From positions 1 to 36,852 of the forward strand of contig JBHHXN010000036.1 in NCBI GenBank assembly GCA_046757025.1: DNA of 36,852 bases, read 5' to 3'. The first letter of the stretch is position 1. Each line of letters opens with the position of its first letter. This document shows positions 7,260 to 20,019 of this stretch, piece after piece. The position numbers and the translations under genes were made by a program. The stretch is from a bacterium. GTDB lineage: Bacteria > Zhuqueibacterota > Zhuqueibacteria > Oceanimicrobiales > Oceanimicrobiaceae. The notes beneath the pieces are model-generated. The model saw nothing but the letters and a program-made list of their open reading frames with translations, did not search any database and was not told the DNA's origin.

Positions 7260-7407
7260 TAGTGATTGACCGAAAAGTCCATATTTCTTTACCCTGAGCC
7301 CTTCGACAAGCTCAGGATAAACTGCGTCGAAGGGTGATAAGCTGTTGTTTTTACGTCATACTTCGACTCCGCTCAGCTTGAAGACGCTCGTTTTCGGTCA
7401 ATCAATA
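7260..7407. mobile_element. MITE-like element with 17-bp terminal inverted repeats and internal REP-like hairpins
   Basis: TAGTGATTGACCGAAAA (7260-7276) vs TTTTCGGTCAATCAATA (7391-7407), one mismatch; internal CCTGAGCCCTTCGACAAGCTCAGG...GTCGAAGGG. Confidence 0.7.
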
Positions 7408-7409
7408 TT

Positions 7410-7561
7410 TAGTGTCCATCCGAATTCGTCATTCCCGAATGCTCCCTGCTTACGGCATGCAGGGACAAGCTCATTAGGAATTTCGTGCCTAACCGACTAA
7501 GGGGTTCCCTGCTTAAAGATTGCGGGAATGACAAAAAAAGGCTCTTTACAGATGGACACCA
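7410..7561. mobile_element. Second adjacent MITE-like element enclosing a GTCATTCCCG...CGGGAATGAC palindrome
   Basis: TAGTGTCCATC (7410-7420) vs GATGGACACCA (7551-7561); perfect 10-bp internal inverted repeat at 7428-7437 / 7523-7532. Confidence 0.62.
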
Positions 7562-7673
7562 TTTAATCTCATCCATCAAAATGGCCGTTCATGCCGTCTA
7601 AAAATACCTTGCAAATCTGCCTGAAATTCCTTAATTTCAACCGCATATAAAATAGTCATCTACCATTGTTGGT

Positions 7674-8417
7674 ATGAGCAAATTTCAGTTATTATTCAAG
7701 AATCCTGAAAAATTTATTCGACTTGTGCGGGAACATTTAAACGTCCATGGTAAATTTGCTCATATCAAACGTCCGGAGTACCAGCCGCGCTTTTCAAAAA
7801 CGTTGTCTGAGTGGGTCATCCACCATCAGAACGAAATTCTCACCAAACAAGTCACCTGGATGGGTGTGCCCATTTGGAAGAATGTTTTGGACTTGCATAT
7901 TTATCAGGAGATCGTGTTTGAACAATCGCCGGATTTCATAGTAGAAATTGGTACGGCGTATGGCGGCTGTGCACTCTATTTGGCGTATTTGTGCGATATT
8001 TTGAACAAAGGCACGGTGGTGACCATCGACGTGGATCATGCGGAATGCGTGGCAGAGCATAAACGCATCATCAAAATAACCGGTAAAAGTCAAAATCCGC
8101 AGGTGGTGGAGCAAGTACACCGGATGGTGAAAGCGAGTTCGGCGCTGGTGATTCAGGACGGCGATCACAGTGCGGAAATGGTGCTGCAGGATTTAAACAA
8201 CTATGCGGATTTGGTCCCTGTCGGCAGCTATTTCATCGTAGAAGATACCATCGCCGATGTGTTCAACAACGGCAACGGAGTGGGCCGGAGCATAGATGGG
8301 CCTCTGTGCGCAGTGGAGCGGTTTCTTGCTGAAAATACCCATTTTGTGGTCGATAAAAACCGAGAAAGGTATCTCATCACCCAGAATCCGGGTGGGTATT
8401 TGAAGCGGATTTTATGA
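7674..8417 (+). CDS. CmcI (cephalosporin hydroxylase)/rhamnosyl O-methyltransferase-family SAM-dependent methyltransferase
   Basis: TWMGVPIWKNVLDLHIYQEIVFEQSPDFIVEIGTAYGG, IQDGDH, GSYFIVEDT, ITQNPGGYLKR. Confidence 0.85.
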   Translation: MSKFQLLFKNPEKFIRLVREHLNVHGKFAHIKRPEYQPRFSKTLSEWVIHHQNEILTKQVTWMGVPIWKNVLDLHIYQEIVFEQSPDFIVEIGTAYGGCALYLAYLCDILNKGTVVTIDVDHAECVAEHKRIIKITGKSQNPQVVEQVHRMVKASSALVIQDGDHSAEMVLQDLNNYADLVPVGSYFIVEDTIADVFNNGNGVGRSIDGPLCAVERFLAENTHFVVDKNRERYLITQNPGGYLKRIL

Positions 8418-11362: not shown

Positions 11363-11764
11363 ATGGATCGAAAAATCAGAATCTTAGTAGCCAAACCCGG
11401 ATTGGACGGTCATGATCGCGGCGCTAAAGTCATCGCCAGCGCCTTGCGCGACGCCGGTTTTGAAGTGATTTATTCCGGCTTGCACCAAACGCCAGAGATG
11501 ATCGTGGAAGCCGCGTTGCAGGAAGATGTGGACGTCATCGGCGTGAGTTTGCTTTCCGGCGCCCACATGACCCTCTTTCCCAAAATTAAAAAACTCATGG
11601 AAGAGAAAGGGCTGCACGACGTGCTGTTGACCGGCGGTGGCATCATTCCGCCGGAAGATATGAAAGCACTGGAAAAAATGGGTATCGGCAAGCTGTTTGG
11701 CCCGGGCTCGATTTCCGCTGATATCATCGCTTACATCAAAGACTGGGTAGATAAAAACCGATAG
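11363..11764 (+). CDS. Cobalamin-binding small subunit of the acyl-CoA mutase (IcmB-like)
   Basis: [10 protein letters not shown] (DxHxxG), SLLSGAH, GGGIIP. Confidence 0.93.
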
Positions 11765-11779
11765 TTTTCGAGATTTATC

Positions 11780-11808
11780 TTGATCGGGAATATCCTGATC
11801 GATAAATT
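11780..11808 (+). promoter_or_regulatory. Candidate sigma70 promoter for the cysteine leader, lying within an inverted repeat
   Basis: TTGATC (11780-11785)-N17-TAAATT (11803-11808); overlaps the imperfect palindrome ATTTATC..GATCGGGA...TCCTGATC GATAAAT (11773-11807). Confidence 0.4.
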
Positions 11809-11837
11809 TGTTTTGGCTGTTAAAAGTATTAAAAAAC

Positions 11838-11933
11838 ATGAACAAAAACATTTATAATTTCATTTCTTTTATTGATGTAGATGGGTACCAACCTATGATG
11901 CTGTGCTGTTGTAAAAAGAGATGCGGGTTATGA
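11838..11933 (+). CDS. Putative cysteine-rich attenuator leader peptide MNKNIYNFISFIDVDGYQPMMLCCCKKRCGL (alternative starts at 11895/11898)
   Basis: Translated by hand: ...ATG ATG CTG TGC TGT TGT AAA AAG AGA TGC GGG TTA TGA; lies just upstream of a terminator and a cysteine synthesis operon. Confidence 0.72.
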   Translation: MNKNIYNFISFIDVDGYQPMMLCCCKKRCGL

Positions 11934-11967
11934 ATGTTTGCCAATAAACAAAATCGACAATCATCCT

Positions 11968-12002
11968 GACCCACATTGAAATTGATGTGGGTTTTTTATT
12001 TT
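11968..12002 (+). terminator. Intrinsic terminator (attenuator) upstream of cysM
   Basis: Stem ACCCACATT (11969-11977), loop GAAATT, GATGTGGGT (11984-11992), then TTTTTATTTT. Confidence 0.8.
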
Positions 12003-12183
12003 ATACGCCAAATGAGCGATTGGCTTTTCGCTTTTGGCCAGTGGTATTTAATGTCTGGAGACTTACGTTGACTCTATCCATTCACGCGTTAGGTGATTTA
12101 CAAAAACCATCTTAGCTAATTAAATTTTATTTACTAACAGCCAAAGGCTAATAGCGAATAGCTAAATTCAGGTTATAGAAAAC

Positions 12184-13158
12184 ATGACAGTAATTTTTAA
12201 AGCACCGGCCTCTGGAAAGAAAAAGGAAGCCGCTGCTGCAATTGAGAAAAACAACCTTCTCAACCGCATCGGGAAAACGCCTTTACTGGCACTTCCCCGC
12301 ATTTCAAAAGCGGTTTGGCCGGTAAAAATTTACGCCAAAGCAGAGTGGTTCAATCCGGGAGGCTCGGTGAAGGATCGGGCTGCTCTCAACATGATTTTAG
12401 AGGGGGTAAATAGCGGAGGCCTGACGCGGAGCCAAACCATCCTCGACGCCACATCGGGCAACACCGGCATTGCGTATGCCATGATCGGGGCGGCGCTGGG
12501 TTACAAGGTCAGGCTCTGTCTGCCCTCGAATGCCGGCGCTCTGTTCAAACAAATTTTGCATGCGTACGGCGCTGAGCTGATTTACACCGATCCACAGGAG
12601 GGTTCCGATGGCGCCATTCTTGCCGCGAGAAAAATGTACCAGGAAAATCCGGAAAATTACTTTTATCCGGATCAGTACAACAGTCGGGCAAACTGGATGG
12701 CGCATTACCAGGGAACGGCGGTTGAGATCTACCAGCAGACACAGGGCAAGATCACGCACTTCGTGGCCGGTTTGGGAACGAGTGGAACTTTTATGGGCGC
12801 CGGTCGTCGATTAAAAATGTTCAGACACGATGTGCAATTGATCTCCGTTCAGCCGGATTCACCCTTTCATGGATTGGAAGGACTCAAGCATATAAGCTCG
12901 TCCATTCAGCCGGGAATTTACGACCACAAGCTGGCAGACACCAACCTGGAAGTGCGCACAGAAGATGCGCAGATCATGGTGAAACGCTTGGCCAGAGAAG
13001 AGGGATTGCTGGTGGGATTGTCGTCCGGAGCTAACCTGGCAGCGGCGCTCACGGTGGCTGAACAGAGCGCCAACGGTCTTATTGTAGTCATCTTTCCTGA
13101 TAGTGCACATAAATATTTTGATCAAAGATTTTGGAGGGAATTCGAATATGGCCATTAA
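12184..13158 (+). CDS. cysM: PLP-dependent cysteine synthase, CysM-type (probably sulfur-carrier dependent)
   Basis: IGKTPL, KAEWFNPGGSVKDR (PLP Lys), DATSGNTG, GLGTSGT, GLSSGAN; adjacent to JAB and CysO/MoeZ genes. Confidence 0.87.
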   Translation: MTVIFKAPASGKKKEAAAAIEKNNLLNRIGKTPLLALPRISKAVWPVKIYAKAEWFNPGGSVKDRAALNMILEGVNSGGLTRSQTILDATSGNTGIAYAMIGAALGYKVRLCLPSNAGALFKQILHAYGAELIYTDPQEGSDGAILAARKMYQENPENYFYPDQYNSRANWMAHYQGTAVEIYQQTQGKITHFVAGLGTSGTFMGAGRRLKMFRHDVQLISVQPDSPFHGLEGLKHISSSIQPGIYDHKLADTNLEVRTEDAQIMVKRLAREEGLLVGLSSGANLAAALTVAEQSANGLIVVIFPDSAHKYFDQRFWREFEYGH

Positions 13159-13573
13159 AATTGACCAAAAGTATTTCGATTTGCTCAAAGCGTATGGCGA
13201 AGAAACCTACCCGGATGAATGCTGCGGCTTTCTTCTGGGCGCTCATTCCAATGGCGTTAAGGTGGTTCAAACCACCCTGCCGGCCTTCAATGCCCAGCAG
13301 CGAACGGAAAAATATCACCGTTATTTGATCACGCCAGAAACGTTTTTGCAGGGTGAAAAGTTCGCAAAAGAACACGGCTTGGATATCGTGGGATTCTATC
13401 ATTCGCACCCAAATGCGGCAGCGAAGCCTTCGACTTTCGACCTCGAGCACGGCTGGCCGTGGTACTCGTATGTCATCGTTTCTGTGACGGAAAATCAGGC
13501 ACAGGAAGTCGCTTCCTGGGTCATGGATTCGAACAGGGTGGAATTCCAAGAAGAACCGATTATCATCGTTTAA
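13148..13573 (+). CDS. JAB/MPN+ (M67) metallopeptidase, Mec-like sulfur-carrier peptidase
   Basis: YPDECCGFL; JAMM motif YHSHPNAAAKPSTFD; ATG at 13148 after ggaggg, overlapping the end of cysM. Confidence 0.9.
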   Translation: MAIKIDQKYFDLLKAYGEETYPDECCGFLLGAHSNGVKVVQTTLPAFNAQQRTEKYHRYLITPETFLQGEKFAKEHGLDIVGFYHSHPNAAAKPSTFDLEHGWPWYSYVIVSVTENQAQEVASWVMDSNRVEFQEEPIIIV

Positions 13574-13591: not shown

Positions 13592-15040
13592 ATGTCCATT
13601 AAAGTAATCATACCGACGCCGTTGCGTCAATACACCAAAAATCTGGACGTCGTGGAGCTGGAAGGTAGGAATATCGCCGAGATCTTGTCGCGTTTAACGC
13701 AATCGTTTCCAGATATCAAGAAACATCTTTTTAGTGAGGATGGCCAGATTCGCAATTTCGTCAACGTTTATGTCAACGACGACGACATTCGATTTCTGCA
13801 AAAAAACGATACGCCGGTCACGGCCGGCGACGTCGTCACCATCGTGCCTTCGGTGGCCGGCGGCAGCGAAAGCCATGCCCCATCGGCGGGCGAAGTGCCG
13901 TTTTCAAAAGCCGAGATCGAGCGCTACAGCCGGCATCTGATCATGCCCGAGGTCGCGCTGGAAGGTCAGGAAAAACTGAAGCAGGCCAGTGTGCTGCTCA
14001 TCGGCATGGGGGGGCTGGGGTCGCCGGCATCCATGTATCTGGCTGCTTCCGGCGTGGGTCGAATTGGCATCGTGGATTTCGACGTGGTGGATTACACCAA
14101 TTTGCAGCGGCAGATCATTTACGCCACCGAGGACGTCGGACGCCCAAAACTGCAGGCGGCCAGCGACCGGCTCAAAGGCATCAATCCCCACATCCAAATC
14201 GATCATTTTGAGACGCATCTGACTTCGGAAAATGCCCTGGATATTTTTCAAAATTACGACATCATCGTGGACGGCACCGACAATTTTCCCACCCGCTATT
14301 TGGTGAACGACGCCTGCGTGCTTCTGGGCAAGCCCAACGTTTATGGCAGCATTTTTCGCTTTGAAGGACAGGTGTCGGTGTTCGACGCCAAAGAGGGGCC
14401 GTGCTACCGTTGCTTGTACCCGGAGCCGCCGCCGCCCGGGCTGGTGCCCAGTTGCGCGGAAGGCGGGGTGCTGGGAATCCTGCCCGGCAGCATTGGTCTG
14501 ATGCAGGCCACCGAAGCCATCAAGCTCATCATCGGCAAAGGCAAACCGCTTATCGGCCGGCTGCTTTTGTATGACGCTCTGGCCATGCATTTCAAAGAGC
14601 TCAAGCTCCGCAAAGATCCCGACTGCCCGATATGCGGTGAACATCCCTCGATTTCGGCGCTCATCGATTATGAAGAATTCTGCGGCATCGGCACCGAAGC
14701 CGATCGGCTTGTGCTGGCCCCTGAACATGAAATCACGGTGTCCGAGCTCAATTCGAAACTCATTCAAAATGGCAGCCTGTTTTTGCTGGACGTACGCGAA
14801 CCGCATGAAAAAGCCATCTGCCAATTGCCCAACTCCAGGTTGATTCCGTTGAACCAACTGGCCACCCGCATTCACGAGCTGGATCGCTCCTGGGACATCG
14901 TGGCTTACTGTCGCTCGGGTGTACGCAGTGCAAAAGCGGTGAAGTTTTTGCGGGAAGCCGGTTTCCAGCGTGTGAAGAATTTGGTGGGCGGCATTCTGGC
15001 CTGGTCCGATGAAATCGATCCGTCGCTGCCAAAATATTAA
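13592..15040 (+). CDS. moeB: Fusion of a MoaD/ThiS/CysO ubiquitin-like sulfur carrier, MoeB adenylyltransferase and rhodanese (CysO-MoeZ)
   Basis: aa 1-91 IPTPLRQYT..FVNVYVNDDDIRFL..IVPSVAGG; then ERYSRHL, GMGGLG, NLQRQ, CYRC, CPIC; rhodanese LLDVREPHE..CRSGVRS. Confidence 0.92.
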   Translation: MSIKVIIPTPLRQYTKNLDVVELEGRNIAEILSRLTQSFPDIKKHLFSEDGQIRNFVNVYVNDDDIRFLQKNDTPVTAGDVVTIVPSVAGGSESHAPSAGEVPFSKAEIERYSRHLIMPEVALEGQEKLKQASVLLIGMGGLGSPASMYLAASGVGRIGIVDFDVVDYTNLQRQIIYATEDVGRPKLQAASDRLKGINPHIQIDHFETHLTSENALDIFQNYDIIVDGTDNFPTRYLVNDACVLLGKPNVYGSIFRFEGQVSVFDAKEGPCYRCLYPEPPPPGLVPSCAEGGVLGILPGSIGLMQATEAIKLIIGKGKPLIGRLLLYDALAMHFKELKLRKDPDCPICGEHPSISALIDYEEFCGIGTEADRLVLAPEHEITVSELNSKLIQNGSLFLLDVREPHEKAICQLPNSRLIPLNQLATRIHELDRSWDIVAYCRSGVRSAKAVKFLREAGFQRVKNLVGGILAWSDEIDPSLPKY

Positions 15041-19869: not shown

Positions 19870-20019
19870 ACTCATAGCCAACGGCTAATAGCGAATCGCT
19901 CAATAGAGGTTAAAATTATTTTCCCTTAATCATTTTGCCTTTTTGGTTGCGGTTCCACCGGGTTAAAAATAATGCAGGTTGAAAATATTGTCACAAAAAA
20001 GTTATTTCATAAAAATAAC

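Follow-up and report, generated by a model that had tools for sequence, protein, structure and literature searches.

A candidate cysteine-sensing transcription attenuator upstream of a sulfur-carrier cysteine operon in an uncultured bacterial lineage

Classical transcription attenuation has been catalogued for Trp, His, Leu and Thr (Rfam families RF00513, RF00514, RF00512 and RF00506 for trpL, hisL, leuL and thrL, as listed in the accessible portion of PMC3766115), and the printed Cys leaders that we found are mycobacterial, leaderless and, where dissected, translational. Mycobacterial polycysteine short ORFs such as Ms5788A are leaderless, and in the one that was dissected control is translational, a Shine-Dalgarno site being hidden (10.1101/834739, partial text); actinobacterial Cys leaders have been described without conserved terminator hairpins (PMC1262725, partial text), and the mycobacterial polycysteine work is cited in PMC13236596 and PMC13096801 (both partial texts). 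The initial annotation of the locus studied here had mentioned such mycobacterial attenuators, as these sources bear out in the parts available, and had known of no classical terminator/antiterminator Cys attenuator in control of a CysM-Mec-CysO/MoeZ operon in a lineage like this. Our search of the literature, covering main texts and a minority of the subscription papers, agrees: no terminator-based cysteine attenuator was found in print, and the Cys-sensing leaders encountered were all actinobacterial, of the mycobacterial translational kind in the partial texts concerned. The string “cys” is absent from the main text of PMC11109978 and of PMC4833913, and no Cys attenuator occurs in the available parts of PMC2965389, PMC13613805 and PMC3766115. 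With a conserved version of the terminator/antiterminator type, cysteine would join the amino acids of textbook attenuation; such a version would also show control of a sulfur-carrier cysteine pathway in an uncultured lineage, and would imply coupled transcription and translation there.

The window that we analysed is the whole of a 36,852-nt stretch from a member of the Zhuqueibacterota (contig JBHHXN010000036.1), in which a short ORF with tandem Cys codons precedes genes for cysteine synthesis. The features discussed below are:

11780..11808, + strand: predicted sigma-70-type promoter TTGATC-N17-TAAATT, read from the sequence, 58 nt before the leader start
11838..11933, + strand: leader ORF of 31 codons, this start being inferred over 11895/11898
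11846..11870, + strand: segment 1, the 5′ strand of a predicted 1:2 protector/pause helix (fold; inverted repeats I8 and I15)
11904..11912, + strand: three tandem Cys codons, the inferred sensing site (sequence and translation)
11910..11939, + strand: segment 2, including the stop codon; pairs with segment 1 or, via 11920-11938, with segment 3
11955..11977, + strand: segment 3, which supplies the 3′ strand to the predicted 2:3 antiterminator and whose last part is the terminator 5′ arm (11968-11977)
11968..12002, + strand: intrinsic terminator, 3:4 hairpin and T tract (fold; terminator scan)
12015..12175, no strand assigned: MITE-like repeat of ~160 bp with 25-nt imperfect inverted ends, between terminator and cysM (inverted repeat I1)
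12184..13158, + strand: cysteine-synthase-family PLP enzyme, CysM-like (PF00291)
13148..13573, + strand: Mec-like JAB peptidase, Prok-JAB (PF14464); the frame is open from 13103, with 13148 the presumed start
13592..15040, + strand: CysO (ThiS-like) fused to MoeZ (ThiF and rhodanese; PF02597, PF00899, PF00581)

When compared with trpL, hisL, leuL and thrL, the locus shares an upstream short reading frame in which codons for the pathway product stand in tandem, the alternative 1:2, 2:3 and 3:4 helices, a terminator before the first gene and a stop codon that overlaps segment 2. An antiterminator exclusive of the terminator is predicted in 14 of 14 loci, as is a 1:2 helix, at which pausing might occur; by the spacing and the mask model described below, a ribosome at the sensing codons would leave segment 2 free and one at the stop would cover it. 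Unlike these systems, the amino acid sensed would be cysteine, and no Rfam family matched. In E. coli trp the codons that sense the amino acid are within or next to segment 1, and the same is seen by eye in the His leaders of the window's own family, unlike the window, where they lie outside segment 1. A stalled ribosome would therefore not itself cover segment 1, and we set the locus apart from a plain classical attenuator because segment 1 ends 33 nt before the first clustered Cys codon in the window and more than 18 nt before it in 8 of 14 loci. The element would work like the trp and his attenuators, and differs from them by responding to another amino acid and by placing segment 1 elsewhere. 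With the Ms5788A type it shares Cys runs late in a short upstream reading frame, a position before sulfur or cysteine genes and, as predicted here, the sensing of charged tRNA-Cys (10.1101/834739, PMC1262725, both partial texts); unlike that type, it has a predicted 5′ leader of ~23 nt and a conserved intrinsic terminator and antiterminator. The ATG, 29 nt after the predicted -10, is not placed as in a leaderless transcript (the transcription start being itself predicted), and segment 2 is predicted to pair with an arm of a conserved terminator, where leader RNA of the mycobacterial type pairs with the downstream ribosome-binding site.

We consider it very probable that the cysM-mec-cysO/moeZ operon is under the control of a transcription attenuator of the ribosome-stalling type, with charged tRNA-Cys as the signal sensed, and comparison of the sequences indicates that the element is real, conserved and cis-regulatory. 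The reading is supported because leader, segment 2 and terminator occur at all 12 of the same-family cysM loci and at one in a neighbouring family. Given this anatomy, conservation and predicted pairing, the steps that concern promoter use, translation, stalling, timing and the response to cysteine would be as follows. Transcription would start near 11815, and the leader would be translated from 11838. When cysteine is plentiful, the ribosome would translate the leader through to its stop (11933), where it masks segment 2; the 3:4 hairpin would then form and RNA polymerase would halt in the T tract near 12000; were the leader untranslated, or the ribosome gone, segment 1 would capture segment 2 with the same termination. 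When cysteine is short, the ribosome would stall at 11904-11912, 11920-11938 would stay free for segment 3, and 2:3 pairing before segment 4 is made would give read-through into cysM. Steric hindrance or a queued second ribosome would presumably prevent the 1:2 helix from re-forming during the stall, since 33 nt separate segment 1 from the first Cys codon, which places it outside the footprint of one ribosome. The role of segment 1 is thus the weakest step of the mechanism, and its displacement poses the question of whether a stalled ribosome blocks pairing across itself or a queue is needed.

The leader ORF (11838-11933, + strand) translates as MNKNIYNFISFIDVDGYQPMMLCCCKKRCGL followed by a stop, and sequence and translation agree with the initial annotation in placing three tandem Cys codons, TGC TGT TGT, at 11904-11912 and a fourth, TGC, at 11922-11924. 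This fourth codon lies within segment 2 and the aligned codon is non-Cys in most relatives; it is disfavoured as a sensor and, as judged from the alignment, is an incidental variant in segment 2. Two starts had been offered for the ORF, 11838 or 11895/11898, the latter at the MM codons (11895-11900) that precede the Cys run. The first is the likely one, favoured because the N-termini of related leaders, which are 26-40 codons long, align with that of the window (KNIYN, for example, is common to the window and L008 leaders), and the second is disfavoured, relatives retaining the longer N-terminal part that carries segment 1. No Shine-Dalgarno motif is visible by eye before 11838. Relatives have 4-9 Cys codons per leader, and the window, with only three in its run, has the fewest of the locus set. 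As an estimate of chance, the 5.96-Mb genome holds 799 terminator-like sites, and a short ORF with three or more Cys within 6 codons precedes 7 of them; neither this terminator-site scan nor the model searches found a second Cys attenuator in the window's own genome.

A TTGATC-N17-TAAATT promoter had also been proposed. The sequence is present, and 11 of 14 loci have a similar TTGnnn-N16-18-TAnnnT site 51-68 nt ahead of where their leader starts; a consensus promoter scanner did not list it. The predicted -10 hexamer is spaced similarly from the leader ATG in the same number of loci, and a transcription start near 11815 is predicted from it. A hairpin at 11776-11802 overlaps the -35 and spacer of this predicted promoter, and could serve as an operator or as a weak terminator for the mutase gene.

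The initial annotation described a terminator about 35 nt downstream of the leader and a pairing between 11920-11930 and 11967-11977 at 10 of 11 positions, both of which we find: the terminator stem (11968-11977/11984-11993, -13.8 kcal/mol) begins 34 nt past the leader stop and is followed by T at 11992-11997 and 11999-12002, and the antiterminator pairing has the single mismatch C11924-A11973, amounting with its extension to -13.1 kcal/mol in the window. It had missed the predicted 1:2 helix (11846-11870 with 11910-11939; the fold of 11844-11942 has -27.6 kcal/mol), which gives the locus the full 1:2, 2:3 and 3:4 set of an attenuator and which recurs as duplexes of -12 to -28 kcal/mol across 14 loci. 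Spacing between segments is conserved: the last run Cys is 9-18 nt from the segment-2 core and this core is 6-23 nt from the end of the stop codon (14 loci); the sensing codons lie 6-33 nt downstream of segment 1 in 13 of the 14.

Pairing was examined by covariation and by duplex energy. In the terminator, 96.9% of cells are paired and 4 pairs have changed on both sides (13 loci), with a covariation score exceeding all of 500 shuffles. The 7-pair core of the 2:3 helix does not rise above shuffles in column covariation (341 of 500 reach its score); it is 91% paired, yet too invariant for this test, the segment 2 core GTGGGTTATG being near-invariant among relatives. The check proposed in the initial annotation, for poly-Cys ORFs and covarying stems in relatives, gave Cys-rich leaders at all 13 close orthologues and a covarying terminator. 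Because the 1:2 columns slip in the MAFFT alignment, we used a permutation test of duplex energies over 14 loci (L042 included, L029 and L043 left out). Cognate segments pair better than non-cognate ones both for 2:3 (-19.4 vs -16.9, p=0.0012) and for 1:2 (-20.0 vs -15.5, p=2e-5), these p-values being overstated in that related genomes are not independent; five control pairings in the same test were all not significant (p 0.24-0.96).

We modelled the ribosome as a mask that covers the leader from its start to 10 nt beyond a Cys codon, on transcripts ending in the terminator loop. In all 14 loci the state changes: with the mask to the Cys codons upstream of segment 2, the terminator 5′ arm is captured (P 0.54-1.0), and extending the mask past the stop codon releases it (P at most 0.26). 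When one ribosome alone is masked, the antiterminator in the window has P = 0.08, 0.45 and 0.85 at the three Cys codons, and is also low in L004 and L006; the model is without sterics, so that 1:2 can re-form in it. In the ribosome-free equilibrium fold 2:3 is preferred over 1:2 in 8 of 14 loci, and the protector role therefore also depends on 1:2 forming first. It had been expected that the terminator would dominate only when its competitor is masked; at equilibrium this proved wrong, the full-length fold being the terminator in every state (P at least 0.9, masked or unmasked), with 2:3 yielding to it once the window transcript extends to 11990. The switch must therefore be kinetic. Dominance of the terminator at equilibrium, with kinetic switching, is normal for attenuators. 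The original stall and read-through reading is supported, with conservation at 13 of 13 loci and the mask model at 14 of 14 on its side, and had to be supplemented by the 1:2 helix, the treatment of equilibrium and the repeat discussed below.

Downstream, the cysteine genes named in the initial annotation are recognisable as a PALP-family cysteine synthase, a Prok-JAB peptidase and a ThiS-ThiF-rhodanese fusion, with cysM starting 250 nt beyond the leader stop. The closest solved relatives of the CysM-like protein are cysteine synthases and its best NCBIfam match is cysM; as this match scores 330 bits, under the cut-off of 394, the assignment of function rests on gene neighbourhood. In mycobacteria a CysM-CysO-Mec-MoeZ route produces cysteine (PMC3227635, partial text), and the same four protein functions are predicted here in one operon, which differs from that pathway in the fusion of CysO to MoeZ. 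The fusion is joined via an internal GG (residues 90-91), and the adjacent JAB peptidase might release CysO from it. A free GG-ended CysO occurs in L092, the genome of L091 and L092 having both a fused-length copy and the free CysO. No cysE scored over cut-off in the window's genome, which is 95% complete.

A cysM orthologue (E <1e-85) was found in 26 of the 167 genomes of a phylum sample, namely the window genome, 12 of 20 from the same family, 11 of 19 from family f10 and a single genome from each of two further families. A Cys-rich leader, antiterminator strand and intrinsic terminator are present at all 13 close orthologues (12 same-family, 1 neighbouring-family): the leaders run to 26-40 codons, 4-9 of them for Cys, a segment resembling GTGGGTTATG lies close to the stop, and the terminator has the form ACCCACA...TGTGGGT. 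At the neighbouring-family locus (L005) the element stands ahead of a rhodanese-like gene, which cysM follows, and L043 and L029 show the same design in different sequence. By simple patterns, most of the more distant cysM loci and L015 (46% identity) have no such element; at L018, L019 and L030 Cys-rich short ORFs precede more distant cysM operons, with no clear U-tract terminator. From a further set of 26 loci we examined 20, leaving out six actinobacterial ones (30-32% identity), and found a Cys leader with terminator in 6, of which L029 alone is counted as new, the other five possibly repeating genomes.

Might the hairpin be only the terminator of a methylmalonyl-CoA mutase operon, with the cysM promoter downstream, for instance in the repeat, and the leader copy a relic? 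Between the mutase stop and the leader there is just a weak hairpin, the terminator dominates at equilibrium, and a hairpin of this sequence type stands by itself, without a leader, behind a mutase subunit at L060. A mutase subunit is directly upstream of the element in just 7 of 14 loci, however, from which we conclude that the element follows cysM and not the upstream gene; in the 7 loci lacking a directly upstream mutase, leader, segments 1 and 2 and a promoter-like site still accompany cysM, and in the window all of these are intact. The MITE-like repeat, which the first reading had overlooked and which matches 20 places in the genome, the window copy included, holds a promoter-like TTTACA-N18-TAAATT (12097-12126), which would suit this account; promoter-like sites number 3, however, against 3.0 expected from shuffles. 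We regard the account as highly improbable, and use of the hairpin by the mutase operon is in any case compatible with attenuation: the window hairpin may also end mutase transcripts, given the terminator of the same type that follows the mutase gene at L060. The repeat may, in this genome, supply a bypass promoter for cysM.

At L060/L092 the bare terminator after the mutase subunit is followed by the free cysO and an apparent moeZ fragment, a layout likely left behind when leader and cysM were displaced by a rearrangement. L043 has a different short-repeat insert after its terminator, and the family of the MITE-like repeat (12015-12175, 19870-19912) has conserved ends and variable internal insertions.

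A switch independent of the ribosome, in which a protein on UG-rich repeats or a metabolite-binding RNA acts and the ORF is incidental, is a shade less probable still. The Cys run is indeed UG-rich, and translation of a leader that has no visible Shine-Dalgarno motif before 11838 is a prediction. Against it, TGY triplets fall 91, 19 and 10 by frame over the 14 loci (a count that is partly circular, the frame having been chosen for its Cys), both synonymous Cys codons are in use (69 TGT and 22 TGC), an open frame with its start at a conserved distance is retained in 14 of 14 loci, and the same core bears His or Trp codons ahead of his or trp genes; an Rfam scan of 11600-12300 gave no meaningful match (3 hits, E 0.86-4, all below gathering score). 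Least probable is that the Cys-rich peptide itself has a function, as a metal binder or as a substrate of the ThiF or JAB enzymes, and the hairpin just ends or tunes the transcript. Peptides of 26-40 residues rich in Cys do adjoin E1-like and JAB enzymes, but their Cys residues differ freely in number (4-9) and spacing, the residues that are conserved (IHN, S/G/R-G-L) are the ones that the pairing of segments 1 and 2 imposes, and the neighbouring enzymes have a sufficient known role (PMC3227635, partial text).

Candidate attenuators with leaders for other amino acids occur as well. In the window's own genome, a His leader with five tandem His codons and a terminator lies directly before hisG and the his operon (G000:C6, about 42130-42305, L093), and a Trp/Tyr/Phe-rich leader with a terminator lies before trpE (G000:C43, about 1454-1610, L094), leaders similar to the latter being found in five relatives. 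A model built from 13 Cys elements had matches in 17 of 125 class genomes, and its 7 weak hits were one His leader (hisG), two moeZ-linked leaders and four Met/Cys leaders (TonB-receptor-like ORFs); 5 of the 13 weak hits of a second model were Trp leaders. Models of the Cys element thus retrieve leaders with His and Trp codons ahead of hisG and trpE-like genes in relatives. His-rich leaders were present at 11 of 13 hisG loci examined, a 14th locus being without upstream sequence. The two moeZ-linked cases (L077, L079) are a 3-Cys leader before an intact moeZ and a Met/Cys leader before a decayed moeZ remnant and a thrC-like gene. Met/Cys-rich leaders on the same scaffold precede TonB-receptor-like ORFs at L078, L080, L082 and L083, three of the ORFs being confirmed by family scan, and make TonB-dependent receptors candidates for the import of sulfur compounds. 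A GTGGG and CCCAC core is common to most of these His, Trp and Met/Cys leaders.

We put forward tentatively, at somewhat less than an even chance for the joint claim, that one scaffold (promoter, segment 1, GTGGG segment 2, ACCCAC...GTGGG terminator) was copied and its sensing codons swapped, with Cys allocated to cysM/moeZ, Met and Cys to thrC-like genes and TonB-dependent receptors, His to hisG and Trp to trpE. As part of this claim, segment 1 of the Cys version would have moved to the leader start because UG-rich Cys codons cannot pair with a GU-rich segment 2, and ribosome queuing would therefore be needed to switch; the sister family f10 would possibly be Rho-dependent. With a shared scaffold, nature would have supplied a set of variants in which changes of attenuator specificity can be studied.

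At all 10 f10 loci with upstream sequence (L014, L044-L049, L051-L053) an RC[LV]C leader and a strong helix containing GCGGGGAG are found upstream of cysM. A U-tract hairpin occurs in 0 of these 10, and C exceeds G in the next 60 nt in 10 of 10; the f10 Cys leaders are possibly a candidate Rho-dependent form.

A possible and recent-looking case of exchanged codons lies at L107/L081 (G013:C269, about 7300-7800, minus strand), where two tandem His attenuators stand before a divergent hisG that is only 33% identical to the family's own. The upstream His leader at L107 resembles Cys leaders and retains two Cys codons, and its scores against them (mean 39, best 61) exceed those against native His leaders (mean 27, best 47), which suggests a Cys-type leader with its codons swapped, the alternative being convergence on a favoured terminator.
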